60,195 nt of DNA from Piedraia hortae CBS 480.64. Taxonomy: Eukaryota. The translations under genes and the position numbers were made by a program. This document shows positions 3,979-53,344 of this stretch, in pieces. The stretch spans positions 62,001 through 122,195 of the forward strand of contig MU005977.1 in assembly GCA_010093745.1 (NCBI GenBank), written 5' to 3'. How positions within the stretch are numbered: position 1 is the first letter of the stretch; every line of letters begins with the position of its first letter. The notes beneath the pieces are model-generated. The model had not been told where the DNA came from. It saw nothing but the letters and a program-made list of their open reading frames with translations, and made no database searches.

Positions 3979-4687
3979 ATGTCTGCGACTCCGAAGGCCG
4001 ATAAGCCTGTGCAGCCCGCTGCCGTCTCCAAGCCTAATGCGACGACCAAAGCTGCTGAGACAAAGGTTTGCGCCGTGTCCAGCACGCGCTGTCCATGCTA
4101 ACCGCTCTTCCAGACTGCCGACAGCGATCCAAAATCGCCAGACGAAGATGCGTCCAGTACACCCGATTTTGGTGATCTGGTCGACTCGGCCGCCTTTGAG
4201 CAGATTCTAGAAATGGACGATGACGACGAGCGCGAATTCAGTAAGAGCATCGTGTACGATTTCTTTGCCCAGGCCAAGACCACATTTGAGAAGATGGACA
4301 AGAAGCTGTAAGTGATCTTACTGATGCGGCCAGCCGCCCGCTGATCGACCCCACAGGGAAGAGAAGAACCTCGCCCAGCTGTCGGAACTCGGTCACTTCC
4401 TCAAGGGCAGCTCGGCCGCGCTTGGCCTTACAAAGGTCAAGAACAGCTGCGAGAAGATTCAAAACTACGGCGCGCACAAGGACATGACTGGCACAAAGGA
4501 AGAGCCTGACGACAACGTCTGCCTAAAGCAATGCAAAACGACCATCGAGCAAGCCAAGGACGAGTTCAAAGATGTCCAGGCCGCGCTACGCAAGTTCTAC
4601 AAGGACGACGGAGAAGACGAGCCTGACGAACCTGACGAGCCTGACGAACCTGACGAGCCTGACGAGCCTGACGGCCAGTCCGACTAG
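3979..4687 (+). CDS. YPD1: histidine-containing phosphotransfer protein (HPt) of the HOG two-component phosphorelay
   Basis: Spliced by eye with two introns (~4066-4113 and ~4308-4356): FEQILEMDDDDEREFSKSIVYDFFAQAKTTF...LSELGHFLKGSSAALGLTKVKNSCEKIQNYG. HFLKGSS is the phospho-His motif. Confidence 0.93.
4616..4672 (+). repeat. 9-bp coding tandem repeat GACGARCCT x6 encoding (DEP)6
   Basis: Directly visible at the end of the YPD1 CDS. Confidence 0.95.
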
Positions 4688-7600
4688 ATGATGTCATGAT
4701 CCTCACCCCGCCTACCCCCGCACGCAACTCTATGATATTACTGAAAAACGTCCTGGTAATACGACCCTACAATGACTTAGAGCAGGTTATGAGCTTCTTC
4801 ACCTATCTTTGTCATTACAGATAGTCTTCCCCCTGAGCAACTAAACTTTCATTCATGATCTGAGAGAAGGGGGGTTTGTCCGTCGCATGGAGTTTGGTGT
4901 TTACATGGCTCTAGACAATGTCTCGAGAAAGAAGACTGCGTATTTGACTGTTCCACATACAAGCACATTCCCAGATGTCACGTGATACTCAATGGCTGTC
5001 GTCTGACAAGAACATCACCCTGGGCCGCTTCCAGCTAGACAAAATCGCAATTTTGTTTGACAGTGAAGCCTATAAACTTGTGACGAGAGATCGGGTAAGA
5101 CGAATCCTCTGCAAACTGATCATTACAGCAAATTGGAGCAATCTCCCGTAATCCCATCATCTTGGATTTGGTGAACAATTGGAAATGGAAAAGATGACTG
5201 TGGGCCCCGGCCAGAACGTTCGCCTGATACCTACATATACCTCGTTTCTCTCGTCGCGGTGCCGCCGGATCGGGAGACGGATTTGATTTACACCGAACTA
5301 TACTTCTCTCGACGAACTCAGTCGCGGAATCACTGCATCAACCACGCAAAATCATGCTTTCTAGGAGATGAAATACCGCACTGCCGAGGCCATGTGTCAA
5401 AGGGATATCCGCCGGGAGAGCGTTGCGGGCAGATACTGCGCTTCATTTTCCCAAGGGTTTGAGCGAGCTATGATGTGATATGCTATTTCCAAGGGAAGAG
5501 ATCATTTTACTGGGCGGTCGGCCCTGGACGTGGACACTGCCTTCCATCAGCCAAGAGAGGATGCAAAGGAGGGATCATGCAGTTACAGCACTCTTACTCA
5601 GCACTCGCCGGGAATTTTTTTTCACTGTGGACCATATCTTCGTTGATGAAGATAGCTCTCGTACTGCTGCCTGATGACCTCTTCGAAACAAGTATGGATT
5701 TGCGCCCCTTGATACGAATTCTAATACTATCATGAAAAATTTGAAAGGAGCAGTCCAATTACCTAAGTTACGTCCCTGTGGAACTGTCCAGCTACCGATG
5801 AATAACGCAAAAGAGTCTGCTAGCCCACTTTCAATCATTCCCCCCGCAAAAATATCAACACGGTGGCGTTGACCCTCCGAGACACAACCGACAGTGATCC
5901 ACTCTGTCTTCACTGGTTCGCCACCGGTTAACTTTCCACTCGATACATCCGCCCATTTGCTTCTCTCATCGAATCACCCGCCTGTGAGAAATCTCTCCTA
6001 CTGATTAGTTGTACACGGCCCGGCCCTCCATCGTGAGAAGCAACCTCTACCCGTCAGGGTTGCTCGGGCAGCCAACTCCCCTTTTCGTCTGGCCACTCCA
6101 GCCCCAATGCCCTCCTTTAGAACCATTGCTTCCGCCAGCCGAGAGCACTCCAATTCCCAGATTCCAATGATTGTCATACAGGTCTATCTCTTTCTCTCCC
6201 CCGTGGCCGATGAAATCACTTAAGCTTCATAGTCTACCTGGGCTGGTCACCGGGAAAGTTCCGATGGTTGTGAGCAGATGGGTCACAGTATCATCTGCTT
6301 TGAGACTGGGGTGGTCGAGAGGAATCGTTCAGCGTTGATTCCTCGGCGGGGTGAGCAACCAGCGTGGAGTTTATGCCAGAACTGTCACACTGATTGAGAT
6401 GTAACGCGAGGACGGTCTGCTCAGCTCAGGTGGTGGTGTAGCGAGTGAAGCCGCGGCTCCTAAAAGCTGCCGGGCATGACTCTGGTCACCGGACACGACA
6501 GGGCGAACTGAGGGTGCATCGTAAAGAGGACGACTGGCTCGGCAAAGGCGCGTTGGCACTAAGGAAGAGCGAAGACAAAATTGGCACGGATGAAGTCCGT
6601 AACTGCTCTGTCGACTTCACTGGAAGCCGTCAACTCCTCACCTCTTTGAGGTGGACTAGAGCAAGGTAGTTTCCGACCGCGTCTACATTGTCGAGCGGAG
6701 CGATGACATGGCGGTGGAATATCCTCTTCGCTGGATGGCACACCCCGAAAAGGAGAGGTTGGGGACCGGCAGCGGGCGCTGGAGATCGTGCTGTTTGTCA
6801 TGCTGAGATTGGTTTCCTGGACTGACGCTTCCAACTGATAACTCGTCATACACACTGTGTGCATCCTGCATTGCATGTTGAAAGCCTTGATTTCGCTGTT
6901 GAAGTCTCCAGGGACTTTTAGTAACTCCATCTTTCCGGGGAGGATTCTCTCTCTCTCTGCAATGAAGGCTCGGGATAAGATTAACAAATTTCTTCCAGTG
7001 GTCCCTCGACTTCTGGTGTCTTGCCTCTCAAGACATTCTCAACCTTGGCAAGCTTGACGGTAACGCAAGATTCCCGGGCTCATAACTGTAAACAACTGGG
7101 AAGACGGGCTGCTATCAGTTCGTGTCAGAAGGATGTGGCACCCACCATGACCAGAATCTCTCATAGAAGTCGAAACTTCTCAGGTTTTTTTACCCTTATA
7201 GAGGAAGTTTTCCCTGAGACGAGTCATTGTCTCGTTTATGCTTAAGGGCATGGTTCGCTGACGTTTTCTTGGCGAATGTGGTTAGACTGAGGTAGTGTGG
7301 AGAAGGTTTCGAACCTCACCTCACATAGAGATAGACAACTACATTCACCTTTTGGCCAAAGTTAAGTGCACGTATTTGTCGTTGATATACGTTCCGCTTT
7401 AGTTCTAGGAGGTTTACCCCTCCGACAGTTCGTTGATATCCCAGTATCTTGTGAAACGAGACAAGGTGAGCGTACTCGGTCGCAAGGAAAACACAGGAAA
7501 ATTGCTACCGGAGGCGCACGATCCGGCCTCTGTACTGGGTCATTCATCGTTGCATGAGTCGCTTCAGGGCGCTGATGACTTCAAGGGCACCGATCCTTTA

Positions 7601-8154
7601 ACCCCCTTTCGAGAAGTAATTTGCTTGTGGTTAAAGGGGAGGAACCGATAGTGTGAGTACACTAAGACATAAATAATGGTATAGTTGTATGTGCTGCATA
7701 CATGAAAGGACGTTGTACATGGTCATCACGTGACACCTCCTTCAACTCTTGTCGTTCGTTTCAGACTGTACCAGGTGCTGGGGTATCATTGGTGGGCAAT
7801 GCGTCAAACTAGTCAAGTTCAAGAGCGTTTCGTCTCAGTCTTGGTATAGAGTCTGGATGTAGGTAGAAGCGGAATGTTTCCGCACTTGCAAGGGAGGTTT
7901 CATCTAATTGGCTCATTCCTCTGGAGTGACCGCATCCGTTCTAGGGCTCCAATAACGAACCAAGTTGGGTCGGGCCGAACCTAGCAAGGCTGGGGGGTGC
8001 CGAACGGTACGCCCATAACCCGCAGGAGACCTCAAGTAGAACAAACAATACACTGCACCTCATATAGATCTGCATTCCATGTGCCATATTTCACTACATA
8101 GAGTTTCGGAGTCTTTTTACGAGAATGGAGAGCCTACAAGACTCTAGAGTAGTT

Positions 8155-8513
8155 TGTAGCGATAGTACTCTCGTGGATGGGAGTGCGCAGCGGCCCGAAC
8201 TAGGAGAACGTGGCGATAACGGAGATCAACGACAGGGATAGGAAAGATGCAGGTGGGTAGGAGTCAATACCAGTGTCGATGTGACAATGTAAAGGAGTCT
8301 GTATCTCTGCGAGGGGACGTCAGAATATATATTCTGCACCGGTGGGCCGGTGACATCACGTCGTACACTAGCAGGGCGCATTCGCCATTTCATATATGAC
8401 ATGACCCTGAGGGAAAAACTCTGCGGGGGAAAAACCTAGGGTGAAGCTGGTAATATGGGACTTACTGTGCAAGTGCTCCGCACACGCACTGATGGCGATG
8501 CTTGAATCGAAAA
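8155..8513 (+). mobile_element. solo LTR (copy 1) of an LTR retrotransposon family
   Basis: Starts TGTAGCGATA and ends CTTGAATCGAAAA (copies 2 and 3 end ...AACA). Flanked by a perfect 5-bp TSD TAGTT (8150-8154 and 8514-8518). Homologous to 13648-14020, 51666-52037 and 53178-53308. Confidence 0.9.
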
Positions 8514-11500
8514 TAGTTGAGCTTGCCAGCAACCTAAACCCTGCTGGGACGGGCTCCCGACAAACATCGACGAAGCCTGCCCCACCACAGCAATGTAACT
8601 GGGTTGGGGCTCGTCAACATCAATCAAGCTAGGATGAGTTGGCACGAGCAGCGTTTGGGGAGAAAAACTTAGCGGAAGCAAGCTATTCTATACTTTGTGT
8701 GATGGACAATAATATTGACAAACTAACAAAAGTTGTCGACAACTTAGCTTATAAGAACGCTATATTGCCGTCGAGCTTGGAACAAATATCTTTGAGGCCA
8801 CATTTCAACGCCTGGCGAATCCGGAGTCAGTACAGGCGGCGGATTGTTGCCAGAAGTCTTGCTGCTGCACGGTTGGATCCGTTGGTATGTATAACTCAGC
8901 TGCAGCGGGGTTTGAGCGGTCAGGAACGGGAACTACCGCCGCGCGAGAAGGGTTGAAGCTGAAGGTCGCAATATTTGGGCCAGAAGGTCGCTGTGTCCTT
9001 TTGCTAACTTTGCGAGGGGCCCCTGTCGCGCTGTTTGGCACCCGGGAAGTGAGACCGCGATTGCCGGAAATGGGGCTGGTGGTCTTGTGACTCTGGTCCC
9101 CTAGCCGCTCCACATGCTGCCGAAGGCTGAGCAGCCACGACTCGTCATCGGTGGCATCTGGATCATCGTTCAGCATGATTCCCTTGTGATGCGGTGGATG
9201 ATTGGCAGAAGGGTCCTGTATAATCCCCTGAAACGGGCAGACCCAGTGGCTATTGTCATAGCCGCGCTCGGCTTCGTGTCCGGCTTCAACTATTGTAAGT
9301 CAGCAACATGAGATACGGGAACACAACGCTCACAGTCTAGGCATGGATTAATGCTTTGCGGATATCCTGATACATAAGCGGCCTTCCTACAGGTCGAGGA
9401 GACATGATCAGTGTAGTTCGAAATGTCAGGGACTGGGCAGGTCGGGTAATTTCCGGCGCAGAAGCTGGGTTTATTCGTATGTGAAGGTGTGGCTTTTTGG
9501 CGTAAGAAGAGCTCTGAAAGTTAGGGCACTTAGCAGACGAACCTTGTGATACCATGCAAATGCCACTGTCGATAGTTGGATTCATATCAGATGGGTGAAA
9601 CTCTGCCAATGTCTCTGAGACAGAGGTCTGTAGCTGAATGTGAGAGAATGAAGATTTGGGGTACACATCCGTTGCCCGGGGTTGGTGAGTGACACCTGCC
9701 TATTTCCCTGAATAGTCAAGTGAACCCCGGCCAGGACTAAGCAGGTGTTGCTCACCAATGCAGGGAACTACTTTGATATGTCAATCGCCGATGAGGTGAC
9801 CAATGACTAATCTGCCAAAGTACAGACAGCCCGGCGAAGAAGCGGGGCATATCGGCCAACTTCCTCGTAGCCTGCCCTTTTCAGGATGTTAGATAATGAA
9901 CCCACTGATACTCGCTTTCTCATCAGTAACGCATCAGTGCTCCCATCGGAGCCTGCCCGAGATGGCATACTAAGTTGAGGGTTTTTATTTCCTCTTTTCA
10001 CCCTCCAATCACCTTCGTCAGCTTGCTGCCTTGTAACTCCAGTCCAATCATGACGGTCGACTACGCGTTACAGTCCCAAATACCGCCTCCACATTGAATC
10101 ATTCAGATCACCAAGCCCAAATGCGAACAACAAGGACATTCTTTGGCCACTGGAGCTGTGAGAGACATCCTTCCTCGCAACAGGTCTGTCTAATCATGCA
10201 GCACACATGGTCTTGCAGTTGTCCTCAGGGAGTCTTTCAGCGTGTTTCTCTCTCCACACGCCGGTAACGATCCTCTCGTCGGGGTCTACATCAAAACTCA
10301 CGCGACTACCACAGCGACTGACAGCCACGGTGAGACGAACGCGAAGCGGGGCCAAGACAAAACGAAGTGCGTCCAGGTTGAACTCGTTCTCACTCGGCAC
10401 AATCAACAAACCGACCAACAGGTATAGAAAACATCGAAGACTGTTAGTCTTTAACGTTTTCTTGACTCAATCCTCTCCACATACATACTAAGGAGCTAGC
10501 GGAATATGCTGCAGAAAAGCACAACACAAGGAATCACAAATGCTTGCAGAATTGTTTGTTTGAACTTAGAGCCATCTAAAGTGTCTCAGTTTACGACTCC
10601 AATTGTTGGCTTGGAACAAGGATGAAGGACAGGTGTGTGAAGTCCAGGTCACAGAGCCCTTACCAAAGGTTGTATTGAGTGAGAATAGGAGCACCTCCTC
10701 CCCTGCTAACTAGACATATCCACATTAGCAAAACCCCATCACCCAGGACGCACTCCAACATAAATGAGACAAGGACTCGTCTTCGGAAAATCTTCCTCCT
10801 TGGAGGTGAACATTCTGGAAGGCCCCGACGTCTATCTACGGTCCACCTGCAGAAAGTGCACACCCACCAAAAGTCTTCTTCAACCCTATCCGGACTTGTT
10901 CTTGAAGGTATGGTGGCCGTCCTGGGAGACATGCATCGCGCTGAGCAAGCAGTTGTCGTCAAGTGCAACTCCGCCCGTACAGCTGCACAGTGACGAATAC
11001 CTGGCCACAACGCCATCTCGCTGAGCCTGACGCGCTTGCTAGTTGCTGCATAGCATCAATTCATCAGGAGTAACATTTCCCACCAACCCGTGTTTGTCCA
11101 GCATTCCGTTATCACGAATCGAGTTTCCATCCTTCAACTCGGCCCCTGGATGAGCTGTTGGCTGTCGTCTCGATAGTACAAGGGATGGGTTTGGGCCCGA
11201 CAATATGGTCCAAGCTACTGTCCACTGTCCGCAAAGCTGCCTAAGTGCATCGTCTGGAATTTGTCTTCGCGGCACCGTAACACATTGTCCTTGTCTCAGC
11301 TAACGCTTCCACACGATGATCCCATCCTGACGTGTGGCCTCTTCCAGCTGGCGCTTCAGTTAGGCGATCACATTATCCATTCAGCGATATCTAGTCGTAT
11401 CACGCTGAGGTGGGAGCAAATACAGCTACCCATACATCATGCCCTCCTTAAACAGTCCACCAGGCCGTAACGTGCACCGGGCCAGTCTCATACCCCCTAG

Positions 11501-12229
11501 ATTGTCCTGAGACCCCGCTACTCCATTGCGCTTGTATTCGAACAAACGGGCCGTTTTCAGAAGCGCGAATTAAGCGTGCTAAGCCAGCGAGCGAGACCAA
11601 CCACGCTCGGAGGTGTTGGATATGACCGTTGAAAGCTTGCGACCAAATGGGTTGACTTGGACGTAGCAGCCTTCGCCACACGCTTTTGGGGCTAGGATGA
11701 CTGCGCACTTGCAGTTTGGCTGGCGGAGGTCTTTCCCACCGACAGTGACTCGATGGTGGAATATTTGAAGTGGGTCAGTTTCTTTGGCTTGGCTTCCATG
11801 AATTTCCAAGTGGTAGGTTTGGGTACGCGGCTCGAGCTCTGGGGTTGATCCTTGTTTGTGAGCTTGGCAGCCGGGGTCTTCTTTGCTGACCGGTGGGTGG
11901 AAATGGCTTCTCTGGACGGAACCAGTTCAGTACTTACCCAGATCTTCCACATAGATTTTCCGGTATATATTCTTGCCCATGAAACCCATCAGATCAACCG
12001 GCAAATCCAGAGCGTAGTGAGCCGGATCATTGTTGAGGTGCTCAGCGTCCCAACTGAGCGATAGGCGTACTCAGCCAGAGAAGTGGTGACGGTCAGTCCA
12101 CTGTCCATTCTCGTCAGCATCTCCTGTGTCAGGAGACCTTGTTGATTTGCACCCTAGATGTTCAAAGCTTAGCCCAATGCTAACGCTTTGTCTTCACGTT
12201 TCTTGTCTTGCAGCCACTTCCAATTCCAC

Positions 12230-13165
12230 CACCAGCCATGCGACATTCATGTACAGGAATTCTCGAAGTCTGAATTATGCCAGTCTGGGATTTGTCATTC
12301 TTACCAAACAGAGCGGTCGGTGTGCTTCGTATCCCCACCCGGCGTCCCTCTGGCCGAGGTTCATGTTTTATAGAAGCCAGCTAAAGCTTCGCCGACGAAT
12401 GAGAGAGTGGATGCTATCTGCATCTCTCTCCCGCTCGGTGAAGGTGTGCCTGGCCCAAGCGCAGTGTCAGAATGCGCTCAGCGACAACGGCCACCCAAGT
12501 GGAGAACTTGTGCAACTGTGGAAATCTGGGTGGGCTCCTTGTTCGCTGCAAGTCCATAACGTGGCGAGCCTTGCCAGTGCTGAGATGCTCAGCGTCTCAG
12601 CTTAGCGAAAACCAGATGGGCTTCATGTCCTCGGCCAGAAAAGTGCTGGTTAGGCTGTCGTCCATATATGTAAGCGTCTCCTGCGTCAGCAGGCCTTGGA
12701 ATTTGCTGTTGCGATGGGTGTCGTCGGCAGCCAGTTGACGCTCTGCCGGCGGATAAAGGAGAAGATGCTCTCCGTATCTCGCGCCAGCCGTCATGCACTC
12801 GGCGTGGATGAGTATCACCTCATTCAAGCCAAAGTAGGTGGTTTAGAAACTCTGGAGCGCTGTCCAGATCCCTCTTGGGGTGTCCGTACACACAGCGATC
12901 AATCAGACCCTTCGCACCCTTTCTATTCCTGCCGATGAAGTCGTCGGGCATCGCAACGAGATGAACAGTTTGGTACGATAGGCCCTTGCGCACGGACAGC
13001 ACGCACTCGACGTGGACGTCAAAATCCCCATCGTTGCGAACGAAAAGACTTTCAATGAGCGCTTTTGATGGCCGTGGCTGGGTTAGCAATAGCCTCGCTG
13101 CCTGTTCGAAGAGTGCATACTGTTTCTGCTGTTCTCGCCGCTTGGATGAGGGCAAGGCGGCCCAA
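12230..13165 (-). pseudogene. degenerate gene of unknown family Y (copy 1, with internal duplication)
   Basis: Exon (TTG)GRLALIQAARTAET, then an intron GTATGC..GCTAAC with a mutated acceptor, then NDGDFDVHVECVLSVRKGLSYQ..., RDTESIFSFIRRQSVNWLP and a second RDADSIHSLIRRRSFSWLL block. Contains frameshifts and stops. Homologous to 53345-54148. Confidence 0.65.
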
Positions 13166-13647
13166 ATGGAAGCCGAGAGAACAACTGGTGGGTACTACTC
13201 AGGGAGACGGGTCTCCGAATAACACACCCTCCTCCCCTAAAGAGTGTTCCACGCAGTGTCCCATGAACTTCGGCAAGAAATGGGCAGAGGGCGAAAGGCG
13301 TGGTGGGTGGATGTGCATGAGTGGGAAATTTGAAGAGTACGTGCAAAATTCAAACCTTCAAAAGTGCGAAGTCTGGGGTTAACCTGAACGCACGGACCAC
13401 AAACCAATCGTTGGTATGGATATGTAGAGTCTGTTGGAGCATGTGTCCCATGGAGATGCACATGTGAGTTGATATCCTCTTTGCTATATCATGAGGGAGT
13501 GATTCCAAACCGTCAAGAGCAATCACCACGCTGACGCAGATTTACAGGTCTCTTTTAAGATTTGATGATTTCCAAGATCATGTTTAAGGTGTACGTTTCG
13601 AAGCCTCGGGTCTCGAAGACAAGCCTGGAAACACGTCTCAAGGGATA

Positions 13648-14020
13648 TGTTTGATTCAAGGATCGCCGCTAGCGCGCATGCGGGGCACTTGCATAGCAAG
13701 TCAGCTATACCCCCTACACTTCCAGCTGCACCCTAGGTTTTTTCCTTCACAGTGTTTTTCCCTCAGGGTCATATCATATGTGACATGGCAGATGCCCCCT
13801 GCTAGTGTACGACGTGATGTCACCGGCTCACCGGTACAGAATTTTTATCCTGAATCTCCCCTCATTGAGACAGATAATCATTCACACCGTCATATCGACA
13901 CTGGTATTGACTCATATCCATCTACATCTGTCCTGTCTCTGTTATCAATTTCCGTCTATCGCTTCGTCCTCTTAGTTCGGGCCGCTGCGCACGCCCATCC
14001 ACGAGAGCCTTATCGCTACA
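13648..14020 (-). mobile_element. solo LTR (copy 2)
   Basis: The reverse complement runs TGTAGCGATA...CTTGAATCAAACA (TG..CA termini). Flanks are GGATA / GGTTA (4/5 TSD match). Confidence 0.88.
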
Positions 14021-15461
14021 GGTTATGTGAAGTGCGGCGGTACACTGACGTGTATTTGGTTATCTTCAGTCTGTCTCACGATGGCTCCATGGCGCCAACG
14101 CCTTGTTGCATCGGATAAAATCTACAGCCCGACTTGGGATCCTAAAAAGGTTTCCAAACATATGCAGCTGAAGAACATGCCGTGGGTTGGCCTGTGATCT
14201 GAGTCAATGCACTGGTAAAACTCCTTGAATCATTTGTCCAAATGCCATTCGCTAGGCAGAACCAGATCGTCCCGAAGAGCTGTTGGCAGAGATATATCTT
14301 GCTTGCGATTAGTCTCACAGCTTTCGATTGTTGAGTCAGGAGCTGTCAGCGACTCAGAAGCTTGGCGTCTTGGCACCGCTGTGGCTTTGCGAAGTAAATT
14401 TAACGCACGGCAGTGTTGGACTACCTCTATCACTACCTTCCGACGCTCTACAGGGAATCGACGAAGGTGCGGTGTGAAACTGAGGTATTGTCTAAGGTAT
14501 CTCTATCTTCTGTGGTCGAGCGGCGAGGAGCCGCTCTTGAACCTTGGTTCTACATCACCTCTTCCAAGACACACATATAGTGATAATACTATAGAAGTGA
14601 ATCAAGGTGTCAGTCAGATGTCACGTGATATACCTCAACTGAAGCAGCTCCTCACGCTCTGTCATGTTCATGCACGCTCACTCTCGGGATGTCACCTCGA
14701 TTGCTCGGTCCGGTCCAACTCGCTTCTATCCAACTACACTCATTTCATTGCAAAAGATTGGGAAAAAATTTTGATTCGGGATGAAAGAAATTCAATTTTC
14801 GGTTTCTGGATTTGTGAATATCCGTGATTCCCAGTAGAAGTGCGAAGAGTTTTCCATCTCTGTCCAACTTTACTTATCTGAAATTGAGTTTGCAAACCGA
14901 CACGAGTCGCATTGTTGCGTGCTACTCGGTGGGTGCATATACGAATGGTAAAGATGGAAGGGGGGATCTACGTAATGTGATGCAGCTGCTATAGAAAATG
15001 AAGGGAGTTATCACATGACATTGTTTACTATCAATGTCAATATCTGGTTGTTAATATCATCGTAGTACAAGGGAAACGAGGACCTCGTCCTTCCATTGAA
15101 TACGACGTACACTACCGCTGCAGACTTTACATGATGATGGCGTGAATGTCGATAGAAAAGGATTACCCACACCAGCAAAGGATGTTGTATACCGCCCTGA
15201 AACGCCTCCTATGCTGATCCCCGCCCCTTTCCTAGCTCCGTGACTCCGAAAAGAGCTTCGAACAAAGTAAGGCCACTCGCCCATAGGCGAGTCTATCGAT
15301 TCTTGAACCACTTCATGCTTCGCCAGATGGTGACCCCAGAGTCTGATCAAACTGCCCTGGCGGCGAAGTCTCGTTTGTATCAGTGAAAGAATCTTTGTCA
15401 GACTCCATCCCAGTTTTTTCTTTGGCATCTCCATTTGACGGTGCCTTCGTTTCCTTCGTAT

Positions 15462-16490
15462 TCACAGACTCTGGATTGGATTGCATCCCCTTTGTTCCGC
15501 CATTCTCGTAGCGTTCTTAGGAACGGGTTCCTCAGATTTGGTAGACCCATCTCCGCTCCCGACTTCTTTCACTCGCTTGCTGTCTCCGTCTTCGTTGTTT
15601 GTAGCAGGTGTGCTATGTTCCTGTTCATCGTCTGCAGCAGGCTTGTCATTTCTGACTTCATTGCCTCCAGCCGGATTGCCATTCCCATTTTCATTTCCGG
15701 TGGCCACTTCGCCGTTTCCGAGCCCATTATCCGTAATCTCTCTGTCATGAAGGCGGTTATTCCACAGAATCTCAAAAGTTTGCCCGCCAAACCATGCTGG
15801 GAGATCTTCATCTCCGCACAAGAAGCCTGTTGTCCCATTGCGGTGAAAACCAATGACGGGATAGGACACCCCATTTGCTGTAATCGTAGGCCAGGCCTCC
15901 ATTGGCACGGGCTCTTCATCCGATGTCGTTTTCTGCGCCCACATGGCCATGGTTACCTGTTTGAACTCTGACATTTCCACCACCACCGCACGCAAAGCTC
16001 GTGGTGGGCAGTCAGAATCGACGATTGTGCCGTATTCCAGTGTATCGGCAAGGAGAACAGCGGGCATCGGACTTTGGTACACCTTGGCTTGGTTGGCCAC
16101 TTGGTCATTGATGTGTTGCTTGCAATAATCGCGGTATCCTGCATACGCTGGGTCCACCAGTAAAGGGGGTAGCACCTCGAAGCCGTGAGACACTAGTTGC
16201 CTGCGCAAGGCCGGCGTCTCCTTTCCGTCATTCATAATGAAGAGTTCTACGACTCTTCCCCTTCCGCGCCCGTACACAACTTCGGCATTGGCAGCGTAGC
16301 TGTAGAGATCCCTGTTTACTTCATGGACCCATGGGGATGCGTGCCACATTTCCAGAGTGCACTCGTGTTGCTCAACACATAGGCGCAGGTACTTCGTATT
16401 TGTACGCTTGTCCGGGTCCATGATGGAAGTGACGTTGTCGCATCTCACTGACTTCAACAAAAAGGGACCGTCCACGACCGGTTTACGCAT
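15462..16490 (-). CDS. hypothetical protein of unrecognised family X (copy 1)
   Basis: Open frame from a Met conserved with copy 2 (MRKPVVDGPFLLKSVRCDNV...). About 83% aa identity (manual count) over ~240 gap-free residues to 50317-51228. The acidic/Gly-Asn tail has a 1-nt deletion near 15505 relative to copy 2. Confidence 0.75.
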   Translation of the reverse strand: MRKPVVDGPFLLKSVRCDNVTSIMDPDKRTNTKYLRLCVEQHECTLEMWHASPWVHEVNRDLYSYAANAEVVYGRGRGRVVELFIMNDGKETPALRRQLVSHGFEVLPPLLVDPAYAGYRDYCKQHINDQVANQAKVYQSPMPAVLLADTLEYGTIVDSDCPPRALRAVVVEMSEFKQVTMAMWAQKTTSDEEPVPMEAWPTITANGVSYPVIGFHRNGTTGFLCGDEDLPAWFGGQTFEILWNNRLHDREITDNGLGNGEVATGNENGNGNPAGGNEVRNDKPAADDEQEHSTPATNNEDGDSKRVKEVGSGDGSTKSEEPVPKNATRMAEQRGCNPIQSL

Positions 16491-16657
16491 GTCGGCAGAT
16501 GTAGAAATGTACCACTGAAGTGGGTGGTGCTCTGTTATAATGGAGTAGCAGTAAGAAAAATAAGTTGATGCTGTGGTTACAGATGAAGGGTGGTGTCTTG
16601 TGCGCTTCTTGCCAAGCAATTGTGTGAACTGTAACTTTACGGGACTAGCAGCTGAAA

Positions 16658-16681
16658 CTACCCCGCTACCCCGCTACCCCG
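16658..16681 (+). repeat. 8-bp tandem repeat CTACCCCG x3 just downstream of the RPL3 stop
   Basis: Directly visible. Confidence 0.85.
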
Positions 16682-16684
16682 CGA

Positions 16685-18117
16685 TTACGTTGTCACCACG
16701 AGATCCTTCTTCATCGTGCCCATGACCTGTTTCTTCTCCGCCGGCGTCTGATATGCGCCGTGCCCAAACTTGCTGCTCGTGTCAATCCATTTCAGATCGA
16801 CCTGCTCAAGCGCGCGGCGAGCGGTGTGAGTAAACATGGACTTCCTGAGGGTTATGACGCGCTTCTTCACCCCCGGAATTGACCCTTTTACCATGACAAA
16901 GTCGTTGTTCACGATTCCGTAGCGGACGAAACCACCCATCCTACAAGCCGTTAGTTCAATTCTCCACAGTGGCACGAGCAACTTACGGCGTGATCTTCTT
17001 CTTGCTGACGTCGATTTCGGTCGATGCATTGGCTTCATCAGAGCCCTTGCCGATGCGATAGATCTTGTGGTTGACGGACGTGCGGTGGTGGTAGCCCATC
17101 TGACCGGCGCGGGCAACAGTCCACTGCACGTGGGACGGATGCCAGGCACCGATACAAGCCACCTTGCGCAGACCCTTGTGAGTTTTGCGCGGCAGCTTCT
17201 TCGTACCCCAACGGCTTGTCACGCCCTGGAAGCCATGTCCCTTGGTCACCGCAATGCAATCGATCATCTCGTTCTGCTCGAAGATCTTGTCAATTTCAAC
17301 GGGCTTTTCGAACAGACCGTGAGCAAAGTCAACCTTGTCTGCAACGGAACCGCCGTTGACCTGAATCTCCATCAGATGCGCCTTCTTCTGCTTGAGAGGC
17401 GTCTTGCTGATCTGGGTGTGCGCCAACACGCGGACAACGGTGCAGTATTTCTTGATGCGCTCAATGTCGCGAGCGATGTTCTTGCCGCTTTCGTCAGCGT
17501 GCTTCTTCGCATACTTGGTGAAGGCCTTCTTCTTGCTCTTGTACCAGTTCTTGTAGAAGCGGCGCTTGACTTCATCCGAAAGATGCGCAGCCCACACGGT
17601 GGTCAAGGAGCGCAGTCCACGAGGCGTCTCGATGTATCCCACCATACCAACAACCATCATCTATAATGTACGGATCAGCGCATGCCATGAATGGTATTGG
17701 CGCCAAGTCTCGTACCGGAGGAGTTTCGATGACCGTGCAGGCCTCGACGATCTCCTTCTTGTGCAGCTTTGCACCGGGGCGGTCCAGGTCACGGACAATG
17801 GTGGTCATGCCAGCCTTGTAGCCCATGGCAGCCGTCAGATGGACGGGCTTCTTAGGGTCTGCAACTCCATCAGTAACAACCCCATCAGTATCCGAGCTTA
17901 GCCTTACCATCCTTGGGGAACGACTTGACCTTTCCGCGATGACGAGCGGCACGCTTGCGCGGTAGGAACCTATGGTCGTCAGCTTCTTTTTTACCTTGCG
18001 CCCTTCGCGGCGATCCTTACGCGAGCGATCCGTGACGAGGGCTGTCAAAACGTTAGCACAGGGACAAAGAGATGCGCAGTTATCGCTGCCTTACGCTTCA
18101 AACTTGCGGTGCGACAT
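16685..18117 (-). CDS. RPL3: 60S ribosomal protein L3 (uL3)
   Basis: Six exons: [43 protein letters not shown]...|MMVVGMVGY...[18 protein letters not shown]...|MGGFVRYG...KKDLVVTT*. Introns are canonical GT-AG. Confidence 0.98.
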
Positions 18118-18410
18118 GTGGTGCTGCGGTTGATGTCGAGTGCGAATGGCTGAGCGAGAGCGAGGAAAAAGAGTGCGCGCGCCAAGAGTTTGGTGCACGT
18201 GATTGTCAAGCACGTGATGTACCGCGGAACCACTCCGTTGAACGGCGAATCGCATGTTACGATTGGTCGAACATTGGACGGAACCACCCGCAGGCTCGCA
18301 CCTTACGGACAGTTGTCTTTGGAAGGTGAAATTCAGCTGCGGACCTCTGCAAGCGCCCCTTCAAACAGCCGTAACCCGCGGAACGCCTAGAGCGTCCAAC
18401 AACCTCAGCC
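18118..18410. promoter_or_regulatory. bidirectional promoter region RPL3/SEC61 with tandem GCACGTGAT (bHLH E-box) motifs
   Basis: Divergent ATGs about 290 bp apart. GCACGTGAT occurs at 18195-18203 and 18210-18218. Function is inferred. Confidence 0.5.
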
Positions 18411-20030
18411 ATGAGCGGGCTACGATTTCTCGACTTGGTAGGGGTCTCCACCACTCTGGACGCGCAAGTCTGATCATTCTAGGTGAAACCCTTTACGCCT
18501 TTGATCCCCGAGGTCCAGGTGCCCGAAACTCGGGTACCGTTCCAGCAGCGCATCGTATGGACCAGTGTGACTCTGATCATCTTCTTGGTGATGAGCCAGA
18601 TGCCTCTGTACGGCATTGTCTCGTCAGGTTTGCAGTGCCCAATTCTAGGAGAAGGGCGGGCTAATGAGCCATGTAGATACTTCGGATCCTCTTTATTGGC
18701 TTCGTATGATGATGGCGAGTAACCGGGGAACGCTCATGGAGCTGGGAATCTCACCCATCATCTCCTCGGGCATGGTGTTTCAACTACTGGCTGGCACCCA
18801 CCTCATTGACGTCAATCTCGATCTGAAAGCCGACCGCGAGCTGTACCAGACGGCGCAGAAGCTGCTGGCCATCATTATTTCCTTTGGGCAAGCTTGTGTG
18901 TATGTGTTGACGGGACTGTACGGCCCACCATCGGATTTGGGCGCCGGCGTCTGCGTGCTCCTTGTTGTTCAGCTCCTTGTGGCCGCTCTGATTGTTATCC
19001 TGCTCGACGAGCTCTTGCAAAAGGGCTACGGCCTTGGCTCTGGTATTTCCCTCTTCATTGCGACCAACATCTGCGAATCCATTGTCTGGCGCGCATTCTC
19101 GCCAACCACGGTTAACACTGGCCGTGGTCCCGAGTTCGAGGGAGCCATAATCGCTCTCGTTCACCTCCTTGTTACATGGCCGAACAAGCAGCTAGCTCTC
19201 AAAGAAGCCTTTTATCGTCAGAATCTGCCCAACATCATGGGCCTCCTTTCTACCATCTTGGTATTCGGAGCGGTCATCTACCTGCAAGGTAGGTCGAGTA
19301 TCTTTACTCTGTGAGACATGTCGCTAACAGTTCTGAAGGATTCCGTGTTGAAATCCCAGTAAAGTCGTCCAGGCAGCGTGGCATGCGTGGCTCCTATCCT
19401 GTTCGCCTCTTCTATACGTCCAACATGCCCATCATGTTGCAGTCTGCACTGTCCTCTAACGTTTTCCTCATCAGCCAGATGCTCTACAACAGGCTTCCGG
19501 ACAACCTCTTGGTCCGCATGATTGGAGTATGGGAAGCTCGCGATGGCTCTGCTCAGGTTCTTCCCGCCTCTGGCCTTGTCTACTACATGAGCCCGCCTTT
19601 GAGCATCAAGGAAGCGCTACTGGATCCCCTCCATACAGCCATCTTCACCACGTATATGCTGGTTGCCTGTGCCGCCTTCAGCAAGGCCTGGATTGAAGTG
19701 TCAGGCAGCGGGCCGAGGGATGTTGCGAAGCAGTTGAAGGAGCAGGGTCTTGTCATGGCTGGCCACCGCGATGAATCTATGTACCGCGAACTCAAACGTG
19801 TCATCCCGACTGCAGCTGCTTTTGGCGGAGCATGTATCGGCGCTCTCTCTATCGTTTCGGATCTCGTGGGTGCTTTGGGTAGCGGCACGAGCATCTTGAT
19901 GGCAGTCACGTAAGTTGACCAACTGTTCAACTAGAAGTTGCTGACACTTGCTAGGATCATCTACTCTTACTTTGAAATTGCGATGAAGGAGGGCGACATG
20001 GCTGGTTTGAAGGGCATGGTTATGGGTTGA
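18411..20030 (+). CDS. SEC61: protein translocon subunit Sec61 alpha
   Basis: [20 protein letters not shown]..., [65 protein letters not shown], ...[19 protein letters not shown]...GMVMG*. Four introns. Confidence 0.97.
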
Positions 20031-20413
20031 GCTGGTGGACAGAGTTGGCTTTTGTGCACCATATAGACGACTGGTGCAACCAGTCACGAGCGTTTAATGG
20101 TTGTACGTTGAGACATTTTTTCTGACTGCCAACTTCTTTCGAAGCCACGAGGTTCATTTCACAAGCTGGTTGACGCACCAGGATTCTACCATTTCTAAAT
20201 CTACGCAATCCAGTTTTCATACACGCTAACACACTCCCATCATCCTCATAGCTAGTCATTTGCCCAAAGGAATTCAACCATACTAAAAAAGCTGGCCGAC
20301 AACGTTCGAATAGTAGGCTATTGCCAAGCCCATGCTATCCAGACGCCCGCCAGCCAACCAAACAAGAACAGACAAGGTATCATTCAAAAATACAAATGCA
20401 AAACAACTAAAAC

Positions 20414-21467
20414 TCAGATGGTTTCCCTGTCCTTATCCGACTTAGTCTCACTGTGCAACGACTCGAGATCTATATCCTCTGGTCGGTGACCAACAGGTCG
20501 CTGTTCAGGCTGCTTGGCGTAGCTTCGCATCTTGCTGCTTCCATCAGGCACATGGAAGCGCTTGTCTATTCGCACAATGAGGTAGACGTAAATGACGATG
20601 ATCTCCGGAACGAAGCTGAAGCAGTAAAAGGCCGGTTTGGTATGGTACCATGCCGGGTTCGTCGCCATGCGAACTGGCATCCAGGTCGTACCTGCACGGA
20701 ACCCTGCGATCAGCGTGCAGAGGCATGTTCCCACGAGGAGGGTGGCTAGTTTGGTGACGTTTCGGCCTGTGCCGAAGGGTTGCTGGATGGGGAGGTGAGG
20801 AGGGGCGAAGGTTAATGCTAGAACGACCAGGGGCACGACGGCGATGACGAGTAAGTATGTGATTGCTCCCCTTTGGATCCAAGATGCAATTGTTCGGGTA
20901 TGTTGATTCAGCGTGTAGTATGTGATTATAGTCATTGTGATAACCATGATCAGACAACAGACGACTAGGCTGTAAAGTGTCGTGTAAACGATCTTGACGA
21001 TTGGACTCCAGCCGATCGAGGGTTTGAATGCGCGGAGACACCGCTTCGATAGCTCCATGTTGATGACATACACGACGAGGATGCCCGCCGCCACAAAGAT
21101 CTGGGCTGCAATTGCGAGTCTGATGTTGTGTATGAACTTGCTCCAGACTATGCGAAGGATGCATGTAACGACTCGTGACATGCAGAATTGGATCATGAGA
21201 ATGATGAGCAAGAACTTGTGTTGCTTTTTGGAGTTCATCTTGATTAGTCGGATGAAGGAAACACCGCCATACAAGTACAACATCGCAAGCACTGAACAGA
21301 TGGCGATATCAACGTCTGCTGTCGGCAAGCCTCCGCTCAGCGCGACCGGGGACATGTATGGGGGCTACAAGGGTTGTTAATATCCGCAGATCGTTGCACT
21401 TTTTGGTAGTACTCACCCCATTCTTACTGGACTCTTGGACCAGCTGCATTTGGAGTGATCCTGCCAT
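20414..21467 (-). CDS. multi-pass membrane protein, DUF3112-like family
   Basis: A short first exon (MAGSLQ...KNG) spliced to PPYMSPVALSGGLPTADVDIAICSV.... About 7 hydrophobic helices, with AIAAQIFVAAG and RIDKRFHVPDGS motifs. Confidence 0.75.
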
Positions 21468-40111: not shown

Positions 40112-40340
40112 AAACTATCCACCTATATAGAGAAGCGTGGGAGAACAGACAAACTTTGTCTCTGTTTCTTTGTCAAACAAGCAAAGAGTAGACACCTTGC
40201 ATCGCCACGACATCGTTCCTGCCAGACCTGACGGGCATCCCGGGGCAGTCCCCATAGTCTTTTAACAGATTGTATAGAACCTGCACTAGTCCGAAAAGGG
40301 GCGTATCACTTCATCCTCTGTCAACCGGCATGCCTAACCC

Positions 40341-41519
40341 ATGAAACGGGCGGTGTCCCCACCGTTACCAACCCCAACATCAACATCAACAATGGAAAAA
40401 AAAATCCTCATCATCCTCACCGGCGGAACAATCTGCATGAAACCCAGCCACTCCGGCTACATCCCCTCATCCGGCTTCCTGGAGGAGGGAGTGTCCCCCA
40501 AAACCTCCCTCAATGACGGGACTCAAAAGATCCCCCTACCCGCCTACCCCGAAACCCCCGCCAACGAAGCGATCACCCTCCCCTCCCTTCGCACCCCCAA
40601 AAGCCGGCACGGCCGGCACGTCCGGTACTGCGTCCTCGAATTCAGCACCATCCTCGACAGCAGTAGTATCAATCAAACAACCTGGTCCCTCCTCGCCACC
40701 ACCATCTCCAAAAACCACCCCCTCTTCGACGGCTTCATAATCCTGCACGGAACAGACACGCTAGCGTACACTAGCAGCGCGCTAAGCTACCTACTCACAA
40801 ACCTCGACAAAACCGTAATTCTAACAGGTTCCCAAACCCCAATTTTCGAGCTCAGGAGTGATGGGGAGTCGAATCTCCTCGACTCACTGATGATAGCGGG
40901 TCATTACACAATCCCCGAGGTATGTCTGTTTTTTAATCGGAAGTTATATAGGGGGAATAGGTGTACAAAGGTTTCGGTGAATGGATATGAGGCTTTCGCA
41001 TCGCCGAACTTCCCACCCCTGGCCGTCTGCCAGACGGACCGGATTGAGGTTAATTGGGATTTGGTGCTGAGGAATCGCGACCCGGAGGCGTTGAGGGTTG
41101 AGAAGCCGCTCGAGATGGGTGGGATCGATATCCTTGGCGTTTTTCCGGGGATGACGGCGCAGAGGGTGGGGAGGGGGTTGAGTGACGAGGGGCTCAGGGG
41201 CATTGTGGTTTTGACGTTTGGGGCGGGGAATGTTCCCTCCAGTGAAGGGAATTCGATCCTAGGGCCGTTGAAGGAGGCGGCGGAGAGGGGGGTTGTGATT
41301 GTTAGTGTGACGCAGTGTCTTGTGGGCAGTGTGACGCCGAGGTATGCGCCTGCCGCGGCGCTGGAGAAAATGGGTGTTGTTCCCGGGTGGGATTTGACGC
41401 TCGAGGCCACAGTGACGAAGTTGGCGTTTTTGTTTGCGCAGGGGAGGGGACAGGAGGAGGTAAAGAGGTTGATGACGGTTCCGGTGAGGGGGGAGATGAC
41501 GGTTAAGGGGAAGTTGTAG
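40341..41519 (+). CDS. L-asparaginase (type I, cytosolic)
   Basis: IILTGGTI, LDSSSI, ILHGTDTLAYTSS, LTGSQ and GNRCTK. Alternative start at 40392. No C-terminal ankyrin extension. Confidence 0.93.
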   Translation: MKRAVSPPLPTPTSTSTMEKKILIILTGGTICMKPSHSGYIPSSGFLEEGVSPKTSLNDGTQKIPLPAYPETPANEAITLPSLRTPKSRHGRHVRYCVLEFSTILDSSSINQTTWSLLATTISKNHPLFDGFIILHGTDTLAYTSSALSYLLTNLDKTVILTGSQTPIFELRSDGESNLLDSLMIAGHYTIPEVCLFFNRKLYRGNRCTKVSVNGYEAFASPNFPPLAVCQTDRIEVNWDLVLRNRDPEALRVEKPLEMGGIDILGVFPGMTAQRVGRGLSDEGLRGIVVLTFGAGNVPSSEGNSILGPLKEAAERGVVIVSVTQCLVGSVTPRYAPAAALEKMGVVPGWDLTLEATVTKLAFLFAQGRGQEEVKRLMTVPVRGEMTVKGKL

Positions 41520-44113: not shown

Positions 44114-44374
44114 ATATCGTAGACTTGGGGGATTGGGTTATGGTGTTTGAGTATGGGATGGAAGTGGATCGATGGTGATGGTACTGGCTAAGGCATGCTC
44201 ATGGCCCGCTCCTGGAATCCGCTTGGATGACATTGTTGCTTGGGGAAGGATTACATAAGCAGCCTCGTTGCGATGACGTCGTAAGAGAACTGTTTCCGGT
44301 ATTGGGATAGTATGGGATAATGGGTTGGGGGATCAACGGGTATTTATGAGGATCATAAGCCAGGCTACATATGA

Positions 44375-44955
44375 TTAACATCTGGGTTGGTTACATGGCG
44401 ATGCGCCAGAGGTGGCCATTGATACATTCGCGCCGGAAATGGTATAATCCAATGGCTCGTAGTAACCTGCAGAGATATGTTAGCAGTTGGTTTCGATACG
44501 TATGGTAAAGCAGGCTGACCAGAGTACGTTTCATAAGCGCTCAGGATGTACGGGCCGGTTCGATATTCGCCTTCGATGGGACAGATGGAGACGTTAAACC
44601 TGTACGAGTAGTAGCCCGCTGCGGAGTCTTTGTCATCTGGCTTGACGTTTTTGGCGAGCAGCTGGCCGCTACGCATGGCTTGATACGGAGAAGAGCTGAA
44701 TCGAGGCGACAACCACACGGAGAGATCCAGACTGCTGGTCTTAAAGTACTGGCCCGAGCAGTACAGGATTTCAAAGTTGTTGCATTCTGAGTCGGAGATG
44801 TACTGCGATAGGATGGCTCCTTCAGCGGGCTTGTACAAACCTGAGCTCTTTCCAGAGCAGAATGGTGTTGTTGCGTTGGCCTGCCTCGGAGTGATGGGGC
44901 TGGCAAGGGTAGCCGTCGCGTAGCAAGCCAGGAAGGTGAGGAGTGAAGAGAACAT
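44375..44955 (-). CDS. small secreted cysteine-rich protein (paralogue A)
   Basis: Signal peptide MFSSLLTFLACYATATLA. Phase-1 intron 44467-44519, then last exon GYYEPLDYTISGANVSM...CNQPRC*. Confidence 0.78.
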
Positions 44956-45805
44956 GATCAAAGTTGGAAGAAAGTTGAGACGATGTTGTCCTACTTATAA
45001 GATTGCATCCTCGAGCACAGTGGGGCCTCGCGTTGCACAGGCTGGTGCCATGCTTTTGTCATTGGCGACCTCGTGCCGTTCGCGTTCATCTTAGCCCAAG
45101 GACAGGGAAGTTGAATAGAAAACGTCAGCTTGGCAGAAAGATAGCATGCCGTCTGCCCATTCGAATTGCAATGTGATGTGCATGTGATCACCGAGCTGAA
45201 CCCTCGGCTATGAGTCTTGATCAATCGTCGCAATCATCTTGAAGGAGCAGTACTCGACATCGGGGGGTTGTTCAATCCGCTGCATGTACGTCAGTAGACG
45301 AAAAAGCCGGGCATGGTCCCTTGCATGACATGCATGATGTCGGCATCAGAGCTGATTTTACCCGAGCAGGTGGAACAATTTTCTTGCAGGAAAGCTCGTT
45401 CATCGTGCGTCGACAAGTGAAGTAAGGAGGTTTGACCTTCCACCTACGTTATCGTGGCTGCGGCGTTTTCGTGTTCGCCACTGGTTGGGGATGGCTTGGC
45501 AACTTTACAAAGTGATCGACTTGGTCAGCTGTGGGGGAACTTTAGCATGCCGGGCTGTCAGTGCATAGGAACTGCAGGTAATTTATCAAAGGGTATCAGG
45601 AAGATCATCGATAAAACGCCCTCGATCATGTCCTAATAAAAAAACAGTTACTGCGTCACGCTGCGCAGGGCAACTAATTGACCGTTTGGTGGGACTCGGA
45701 AAGGGCCGAACCCAACTGCACTTCATCTCACTTTGGAACAGAGGATGATTAACAAACACTCTTGGATAGCTCATGCGCTATGTACCATACTCATGCCAGC
45801 TCCTC

Positions 45806-46323
45806 TCAGAACGTCTCCATGTTAACATCAATCCTTGAAAGCAAAACCCCGTTCGGATTCTGCCAGCCTGGTATCGCTAGCAGGTGAAGCTTGAGACGAA
45901 GGAATATCACCTACCCGTGTGTATTTCATACGCGGTAATGACCCGGTCCCCCTTGGGGTACCCATCGGCAGATGGACAAACCTTGGCCTTGAACGTGTAC
46001 GAGTTACCATTGCCGTTGTCATCTGGGCGGGCATCTCTCGTGATAACCTGGCCGGTTATAGCGCACGATCCATTCTTATGCTCCGACATCCAGATGTCAA
46101 CAAACAACGTCTCCGTATTTCCACCTTGACTCGAGCAGTAGACCATGTCAAACTCGTTGCACATTCCGTTGGTGGTATTCTGCTTCAAGATAGCGCCGTC
46201 ATACGGCACACGCAAACCATATGACTTGCCATCACAAAGCGGCGACGAACGCTTGCCATTCTCTGCGAAAGTACCTGCTACAAGCGCAGAGAGCATAGAG
46301 AAAATGAACGAGAAGAAAAACAT
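45806..46323 (-). CDS. small secreted cysteine-rich protein (paralogue B)
   Basis: Signal peptide MFFFSFIFSMLSALVAG. LCDGKSYGLRVPYDGAILKQ..CNEFDMVYCS aligns with paralogue A. An intron falls at the same codon (YEIHTG vs YETYSG). Confidence 0.72.
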
Positions 46324-46909
46324 GGCGATGAGCAGCGTGAGGTAGGTTGAGGAAGAAAGTAGGTGTTGAAGTGAGGTGCAGCTATGACATAAAACGCGCC
46401 TTTATTTCCACCGCGAGCAAGCTACCCCACCTGGCTGGCCTGATCAGGTCCAATCGGCTCGTTAGTGCTTGCATCACTGCACATGCCCCTCCATGACATT
46501 GGCAACCACCCGCCAAAATGGGAAGCTGTTGGCACGTGTCTCTTTATTTACAGCATCAAGTAGTTTGAAAGTTGTTCATGCTCCAATAGCCATGCAGAAA
46601 AGATGCATGTTCCTGCACGATGATCCAGTCACTACCAGGCACATGGATTTCAGGTCATATTTTGGCCTCCTGCTTCATCTCATGCAGCCTTCCGGCCAAC
46701 CAGCAGGGCCATTATAACGGCGGGCGGACAGCAACCATGTGATGACGATAGACCAGCTCGACTGCTCTCTTTCATGCAAGCTGAGCGACAATGGAATCGC
46801 TCACATTCGATCGATTGCTCTAACCTGCCTCGCTTGACGCTGCCAAAGAATACATAACGTTGACTCAATATCCATGTTCAAAGAAAGTCAGCTCCTCGCA
46901 AGACAACTA

Positions 46910-53308: not shown

Positions 53309-53344
53309 TTGTCCATGCGCTTGAGAATCTCTTTGCGGTGACGT

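Follow-up and report, generated by a model that had tools for sequence, protein, structure and literature searches.

The window analysed here, a whole stretch of 60,195 nt from the fungus Piedraia hortae CBS 480.64 (assembly GCA_010093745.1, contig MU005977.1, positions 62,001-122,195 of the forward strand), holds two copies of a gene that we call gene X. X is a real, lineage-restricted, duplicated gene, and it is best explained as belonging to a small, uncharacterised family of Dothideomycete proteins, within which it evolves fast and is shortened at the C-terminus. Copy 1 (15462-16490, minus strand; protein P0001) is an open reading frame (ORF) of 342 aa followed by TGA, with an identical gene call in the protein database and an RNA contig lying over it, and copy 2 (50317-51228, minus strand; protein P0002) is an ORF of 303 aa followed by TAG, also with a gene call in the protein database. 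The two proteins align by BLASTP with 218 of 276 residues identical and no gaps (E 1e-166). Their conserved cores, residues 1-249 in each (15744-16490 in copy 1 and 50482-51228 in copy 2, both on the minus strand), pair residue for residue at 81% identity without a gap, with 47 differences, 40 of which fall within the stretch from FLLKSV to NRLHD (aa 10-249, 240 aa). A first-pass annotation of this DNA had placed the two genes at the same coordinates and described a gap-free alignment from FLLKSV to NRLHD with about 40 differences in about 240 aa; the exact count, on the minus strand, is 40 in 240 with no gaps. It had also reported an identical peptide with at least six third-position changes, which corresponds to a 23-aa stretch, GFHRNGTTGFLCGDEDLPAWFGG, that the two copies share unchanged although their DNA differs there at 7 nucleotides, every one of them in a third codon position. 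Its statements that X has neither a signal peptide nor a transmembrane segment and contains no recognised domain held as well, in that the maximum Kyte-Doolittle 19-aa window is 0.88, the N-terminus is not signal-peptide-like, and no Pfam family scores above cut-off for either copy.

The differences between the two cores are concentrated at third codon positions (28/27/65 by codon position over 747 nt; chi-square p 8e-6), and by the Nei-Gojobori method nonsynonymous divergence (dN) is 0.107 and synonymous divergence (dS) 0.519, yielding a dN/dS of 0.21 rather than a value near 1 (Fisher p 4e-15). The Kimura two-parameter distance at 4-fold sites is 0.273 (94 sites), compared to 0.283 in the 3' flank and 0.264 in the 5' flank, and with these 4-fold sites and non-coding flanks as the yardstick, core dN is about 0.4 of neutral. 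In simulations, the open frame survives 120 random substitutions in only 1.3% of cases (P 0.013). Constraint is most apparent in the final 49 core codons, where dN is 0.027 and dS is 0.43. A relative-rate test with the distant family described below as outgroup assigned 10 changes to the branch of copy 1 and 9 to that of copy 2, and of 81 family-conserved residues, 35 are retained in copy 1 and 33 in copy 2; because the changes on the two branches and the retention of conserved residues are equal in this way, neither core looks like a decaying pseudogene. The 249-aa core is intact in both copies and subject to purifying selection, and the two evolve at equal rates. Repeat-induced point mutation (RIP) was considered as the source of the divergence and rejected, as transitions and transversions number 69 and 51, the CpA bias is absent, and RIP indices are alike in the ORF-poor DNA (the "islands" in which the copies lie) and in genic DNA.

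To assess expression at the copy 1 locus, assembled contigs of one public run were placed on positions 13000-20500. This run contains 75% of the sampled words of 15000-18200 and behaves as RNA: it shows five intron-sized CT..AC skips in the gene for ribosomal protein L3 (RPL3) that adjoins copy 1, four GT..AG skips in the Sec61 gene, and poly(A) loose ends. One contig of 1351 nt runs over 15174-16524, free of mismatches, gaps and joints, and takes in the full coding sequence (CDS) of copy 1 and about 290 nt past its stop codon. The k-mer depth of this contig is 213, versus 1.7 in the bin 14757-15007, 31 over 13000-13500, and several thousand in RPL3 and Sec61. The run therefore contains RNA of copy 1, in a single unspliced form, and the X gene is intronless. 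Transcription of copy 1 and purifying selection on the core bear out the earlier proposal that X is a functional, lineage-restricted coding gene.

Past residue 249, both proteins continue into Gly/Asn/Asp/Glu-rich sequence. The tail of copy 1 (aa 250-342; 15462-15743, minus strand) is acidic, Gly/Asn-rich and predicted to be disordered, and its AlphaFold2 model has a predicted local distance difference test (pLDDT) score below 50 over residues 251-342. The tail of copy 2 is without two segments, of 132 nt and about 78 nt, that are present in copy 1. Set against copy 2, copy 1 shows a deletion of 1 nt near 15500, and copy 2 has TAG at the positions of a GAG and then a CAG in copy 1's shifted frame; in all, the former tail of copy 2 contains two in-frame TAGs and a further 1-nt indel. 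Without these lesions, both copies would read through to a common ...SGEA-TGA that lies within a perfectly conserved 20-nt block. The first-pass annotation had already noticed the 1-nt deletion in copy 1 and the TAG stops in copy 2, and both were confirmed by frame analysis and alignment, with the deletion placed near 15500. In copy 1, the probable former C-terminal extension (15313-15500, minus strand), which ends in this ...SGEA-TGA, has been out of frame since the 1-nt deletion and is now 3' untranslated region (UTR). It lies inside the unspliced RNA contig, and the frameshift is not spliced out in the assembled transcript. A 77-nt GT..AG interval at 15469-15393, noted by eye, would restore the long frame, but it was rejected for the assembled form because the RNA contig is colinear with the DNA. 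As far as the aligned sequences can tell, a longer ancestral tail was probably shortened independently in each copy.

The first-pass annotation had called X an orphan, and this did not hold up. Of 2800 candidates in a word-seeded search of 5.8 billion proteins, only the proteins of the two X copies were retrieved. However, an exhaustive hmmsearch with a two-sequence core profile over 1.84 billion representatives returned five proteins at E ≤ 1e-3: one is the X cluster, and the others are four further representatives, P0003-P0006, at E 1.3e-5 to 2.2e-4, which have obvious motifs in common with X along the entire core. A six-sequence profile then recovered nine proteins among 7585 candidates: the two X copies, five proteins of Elasticomyces elasticus (LTR27_001929, LTR17_016800, LTR97_012384, LTS10_009219 and LTR56_007957) and two of Hortaea werneckii (KC331_g13574 and KC349_g1424), all seven annotated as "hypothetical protein". 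Among the named strains and species, this profile search found one relative per Elasticomyces strain and two in Hortaea. The ten relatives considered here are these seven named proteins and three unnamed database proteins (P0004-P0006), one of which could even stem from this same genome. With the family profile, of which they were themselves a part, the X copies score E 1e-97 to 1e-106. In tblastn each of the ten relatives matches the two copies of X (E 2.5e-7 to 1.2e-14), and the window contains no further match below E 0.02. None of 480 pattern matches in metagenome contigs was confirmed as a relative by tblastn.

Across the 12 family sequences there are 20 invariant columns, and the shared motifs include (F/Y/W)(L/V)L(K/E)S, GR..(D/R)(E/V)VELF..(E/N)DG.ET..LR and P.P..L(L/I)(A/G)(D/N), as well as (N/R)G..Y.(V/L).G and (D/G)E(E/D)....(F/W)F. 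At about 25% identity, the profile matches and motifs together show the X core to be homologous, as judged from sequence, to the N-terminal domain of about 250 aa of the ten relatives. X and the Elasticomyces/Hortaea family have in common this N-domain with its motifs and its predicted order of strands and helices, are soluble, and carry no Pfam domain. In contrast, identity is only 22-27%, and the relatives are 400-574 aa long whereas X is 303-342 aa. All ten relatives carry long Lys/Arg/Glu-rich segments after the N-domain, and they have a stretch of acidic Ser/Asp/Glu sequence as well as a short motif conserved at the C-terminus, while both X copies are without any of these; remnants of the relatives' C-terminal parts were not found downstream of X by tblastn within the window. 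X has instead a Gly/Asn-rich, acidic tail, predicted to be disordered, that ends in unrelated low-complexity sequence, and X is duplicated. The host's phylogenetic isolation and the fast rate of X explain why X looked like an orphan.

An AlphaFold model of X built with the 12-sequence alignment reached a moderate mean pLDDT of 61.8, and in the model of an Elasticomyces relative (P0009) most blocks of residues 12-250 score 80-88. The two models have the same order of strands and helices, arranged in two lobes, and the X core is accordingly modelled as a two-lobed alpha/beta domain, a prediction that we treat as such. The P0009 model additionally contains two long Lys/Arg/Glu-rich helices (residues 243-276 and 290-321) that are absent from the X model. 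No internal repeat relating lobe 1 to lobe 2 is detectable at the sequence level (hhalign probability 0.3%). For lobe 1, ADF-H/gelsolin domains recur at the top of the lists for both models and in both structure-comparison programs, with scores that are common for unrelated folds. The fold includes cofilin, coactosin, twinfilin, gelsolin and fragmin; neither of the Pfam families Cofilin_ADF and Gelsolin is matched by any of the 12 family members, and the weak resemblance of the lobe 1 models is a lead only.

By self-blastn, the duplicated unit extends beyond the coding sequence at both ends. It spans 15044-16604 at copy 1, where it comprises about 115 nt of 5' flank, the CDS and about 420 nt of 3' flank, and 49978-51347 at copy 2 (both on the minus strand); 15675-16604 matches 50413-51347 at 81.5%, and 15044-15412 matches 49978-50359 at 73%. 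Homology between the copies ends sharply at both borders of this unit of about 1.5 kb, which at copy 1 (16604 to 15044) nearly matches the span of the RNA contig (16524 to 15174). The 3' flank of copy 1 holds a 134-codon open frame, in which the differences between the copies by codon position are 26/29/28 (p 0.92), and the corresponding 3' flank of copy 2 has 4-10 stops in every frame. Stop-free frames of at least 134 codons are common, with 18 in 24.8 kb of island DNA. Due to the lack of codon-position bias, the stops in copy 2 and the frequency of such long frames, we do not consider the 134-codon frame to be a second gene, and no co-duplicated second gene was found in the unit, which contains only X and UTR-like flanks. 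Neither unit has terminal inverted or direct repeats that pair its ends, and no target-site duplication, A-run or poly(A) tract was seen at the unit boundaries.

A dispersed repeat of about 370 nt lies near both copies, at 8155-8515 (minus strand), 13646-14020 (plus), 51666-52032 (plus) and, in part, 53179-53312 (minus), with 77-85% identity between its copies. It begins TGTT... and is without a coding signature, scoring alike in several frames and on both strands, and it sits 3' of X copy 1 but 5' of X copy 2. Bins of the RNA run over the repeat at 13646-14020 have a k-mer depth of 463-964, versus about 31 alongside, so that this repeat is multi-copy and/or transcribed somewhere in the genome; it may be a solo long terminal repeat, a miniature inverted-repeat transposable element or of another class. 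Apart from it, what the two neighbourhoods have in common is short dispersed repeats, which do not run colinear with X and score alike on both strands. Further weak similarity exists between 13059-13379 and 54048-54335, with 34% peptide-level identity over about 100 codons, similar on both strands, and between 64-nt repeats (12375-12438 and 12729-12792 versus 53524-53587) that are 66-75% alike. The weak shared stretches differ in their order relative to X at the two sites and could be the remains of an older, larger repeated element. On the copy 2 side we also observed a tandem 32-nt repeat (two copies, 81% alike) at 49858-49921, just past the 3' end of the unit, and a perfect 12-nt inverted repeat, TACAGACTGTAC / GTACAGTCTGTA, at 50053-50077 within the 3' flank, opposite a 14-nt gap in copy 1.

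Judged by its gene content and sequence relationships, the window is part of a fungal chromosome from a Dothideomycete-like host without a close sequenced relative in the databases. Housekeeping genes are packed across about 17-44 kb, and the long frames there encode an Rpb3/RPC40-type RNA polymerase subunit, an aminotransferase, ribosomal protein L3, Sec61/SecY, an AAA ATPase, an aromatic amino-acid lyase, a Mnn10-type glycosyltransferase, GrpE, an aspartyl protease, an asparaginase and an inositol 5-phosphatase. The asparaginase (40338-41516, plus strand; 375 aa called) is of a short form lacking the ankyrin repeats found at the C-terminus of most Pezizomycotina homologues, a form common to Elasticomyces, Friedmanniomyces, Recurvomyces, Oleoguttula, Meristemomyces and Neophaeotheca. 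It is at most 55% identical to any other protein-database entry, and its nearest named relatives are Dothideomycetes at 51-55%, the best of them from Elasticomyces, Friedmanniomyces, Recurvomyces, Cladosporium halotolerans and Cryoendolithus, which have this ankyrin-less form too; a best identity this low indicates that the host lineage is poorly sampled.

RPL3 (16688-18090, minus strand; PF00297), with three exon-sized frames, lies immediately before copy 1, which begins about 200 nt past the RPL3 stop codon. Poly(T) loose ends in the RNA run place RPL3 poly(A) addition sites at 16612 and 16620 on the minus strand, about 120-130 nt before the ATG of X copy 1 (16490). The tandem is very tight, and X could share or depend on RPL3 transcription. 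The RPL3 stop codon is a TAA at about 16686-16688, and directly after it an 8-nt unit, GCGGGGTA, is repeated three times.

ORF-poor stretches flank the housekeeping block at about 4.7-15 kb (4700-15000) and about 44-60 kb (44200-60195), and both X copies are located at the edges of these stretches. This ORF-poor DNA, about 25 kb in total, has ordinary GC content (0.49-0.51) and no RIP signature. Among its 134 stop-free frames of at least 70 aa, the sole Pfam match above the curated cut-off is an Hpt domain (PF01627, E 7e-8) in the frame 4325-4684 on the plus strand, which probably encodes a Ypd1-type phosphorelay protein and is the only recognisable gene of the left stretch; no transposase, reverse transcriptase, integrase or recognisable pseudogene domain was detected by Pfam in these frames. 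The earlier description of the neighbouring island sequence as pseudogenised is thus not supported, and its description as mobile DNA fares no better, as these domains, terminal repeats on the unit and a RIP signature are all lacking. Nevertheless, the ORF-poor DNA is transcribed, with RNA contigs, a minus-strand poly(A) site at 14468 and depths of 52-187 in the bins 14255-14756. The transcripts may represent unannotated orphan genes or non-coding RNAs, which would be unusual next to dense housekeeping genes.

Taken with the homology of its core, these observations make it probable that X belongs to the ordinary cellular protein-coding genes of a Dothideomycete-like fungus and exists as two old paralogues. 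A single copying event would have involved a segment the size of a gene, about 1.5 kb and roughly equal to the transcription unit, and this would have happened long ago because neutral divergence amounts to about 0.27 substitutions per site. Since then the low-complexity tail would have been shortened independently in each copy, with selection acting on the core only. By comparison with its relatives, X would have lost the two Lys/Arg/Glu-rich helices, the acidic stretch and the C-terminal motif, which suggests that the N-domain is the functional module. As to how it acts, a soluble intracellular binding or adaptor domain, rather than an enzyme, is a possible but doubtful guess. In the full-length relatives this domain may be tethered by basic helices that resemble nuclear/nucleolar or nucleic-acid-binding segments, and in X it may act untethered, with an acidic disordered tail. 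Were the ADF-H/gelsolin resemblance of lobe 1 real, which we think unlikely, the partner could be cytoskeletal.

We would like to note that several points weigh against this explanation. The family homology draws on weak single-profile E-values (1e-5 to 2e-4) together with consistent motifs, and no Pfam family is found in any of the 12 members (the two X copies and the ten relatives). A match to the type VI secretion immunity family Tsi3 (PF22211) was dismissed as noise, as it was found in copy 2 only, one of the 12 members, at 12.6 bits versus a gathering cut-off of 26 (E 0.19). Searching the PDB by sequence with X gave noise only (Gins51, E 0.079), searching it with the family profile gave compositional matches of the basic region to eL24 and similar proteins at E 0.087 or worse, and the ESM Atlas held no usable neighbour for the X core or P0009. 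With thresholds of Foldseek E ≤ 0.001 or VIA Z ≥ 5, neither X nor P0009 has a fold match above noise in the PDB, where the best Foldseek E is 0.73 for X and 0.10 for P0009, or in the viral library BFVD, where the best E is 0.017 with a TM score of at most 0.17 and all matches are phage proteins; lobe 2 was barely covered as a separate domain. The proposed binding or adaptor role is a guess from composition and architecture, and the invariant polar residues R75, E82, D88, T92, C123, Y210 and E228 could equally mark a catalytic site. The dN/dS value, being pairwise, cannot prove present-day constraint on both copies. The RNA evidence consists of contigs of one run whose kind is itself inferred and which do not fix ends, strand or level, and since the end of RPL3 lies about 90 nt upstream of the contig, the X RNA could stem from RPL3 read-through. 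Additionally, the X copies lie in unusually ORF-poor, repeat-bearing stretches, a placement that the explanation does not account for.

One or both copies might instead be a young pseudogene or a non-coding transcript whose frames are open by chance. Measured against the inferred ancestor, the tails do contain a frameshift and premature stops, long stop-free frames are frequent in the island sequence (the 18 of at least 134 codons mentioned above), and the RNA evidence is limited to copy 1, but the strong synonymous excess (Fisher p 4e-15), the low chance of an open frame after 120 random substitutions (0.013), the symmetric amino-acid change on both branches with equal keeping of family-conserved residues, and the contrast between dN 0.027 and dS 0.43 in the last 49 core codons make this very unlikely. 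Somewhat less improbable, though still unlikely, is that X is a passenger of a transposon or a domesticated transposon or viral gene, an alternative that the first-pass annotation had also raised, or that the second copy arose by retroposition of X mRNA. That X is intronless and that the ~370-nt repeat lies near both copies can be cited for such an origin; in a fuller weighing its sole support is the near coincidence of the duplicated unit with the RNA contig. Against it, Pfam finds no transposase, reverse transcriptase, integrase or capsid domain in X, in the 12 family members or in the 134 island frames. The unit ends lack terminal repeats, a target-site duplication or a poly(A) tract, and the ~370-nt repeat changes sides, being 3' of copy 1 and 5' of copy 2. 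The viral structures of BFVD gave no match (E 0.017 and a TM score of at most 0.17 at best), and none of the 480 metagenome pattern matches was confirmed.

The first-pass annotation had favoured a different origin, with X as the surviving antidote or immunity half of a toxin-antidote or meiotic-drive module whose linked toxin, Y, has decayed; a single-gene killer like wtf or tdk1 would be a variant of this. X is indeed lineage-restricted, duplicated and fast-evolving in ORF-poor, repeat-bearing DNA, its tails turn over rapidly, and one soluble protein can be toxin and antidote both, as is described for Tdk1 (PMC11551426). Nonetheless, we found nothing that specifically supports an antidote, and we regard this origin as highly improbable. 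The retention of X with loss of a linked Y is not supported: the unit is X with its flanks only, its 3' part is neutral and has no coding signature (26/29/28), and the other shared pieces are short dispersed repeats, non-colinear with X and alike on both strands. Protein-database searches place only two X copies on record, both in the window, and the relatives, with one per Elasticomyces strain, two in Hortaea and a longer conserved architecture, look cellular. The Tsi3 immunity match is noise. The wtf products are described as multi-pass membrane proteins (PMC10721834), whereas X has no transmembrane segment. Tdk1 is, like X, a single soluble protein, but it is laid out as an N-terminal domain, a coiled-coil stalk and a C-terminal domain (structure deposited as PDB 9JA6; PMC11551426), and X has no such layout. 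The fungal killer drivers (wtf and tdk1 of fission yeast, Spok of Podospora/Fusarium) resemble X in being lineage-restricted, fast-evolving, sometimes multi-copy and domainless. They differ from X in that X has two copies and no co-duplicated partner and is known here from sequence, RNA and models rather than from drive genetics. No driver protein, including Tdk1 (PDB 9JA6), is among the structural or sequence matches listed for X, an absence that does not exclude membership of such a family. A tdk1-like version in which the X pair is a selfish single-gene killer/antidote or dominant-negative driver, truncated from a conserved nuclear protein and spreading as a gene-sized unit into gene-poor DNA, is to our judgement just as remote; if true, it would be the first such system in Dothideomycetes, and nothing found points specifically to it.

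X can serve as a calibration case: it had first appeared to be a selected-looking orphan in "decaying mobile DNA", and an exhaustive profile search then showed a pair of shortened, fast-evolving paralogues that belong to a small fungal family, in a host without a close sequenced relative. Apparent orphans are usually explained in this way. The family domain of about 250 aa has neither a Pfam model nor a detectable neighbour of solved structure, and it is conserved across black and extremotolerant Dothideomycetes. In X this domain is maintained without the basic C-terminal half, and both natural "minimal" versions would lend themselves as constructs to determining the structure of the domain and finding its partners.

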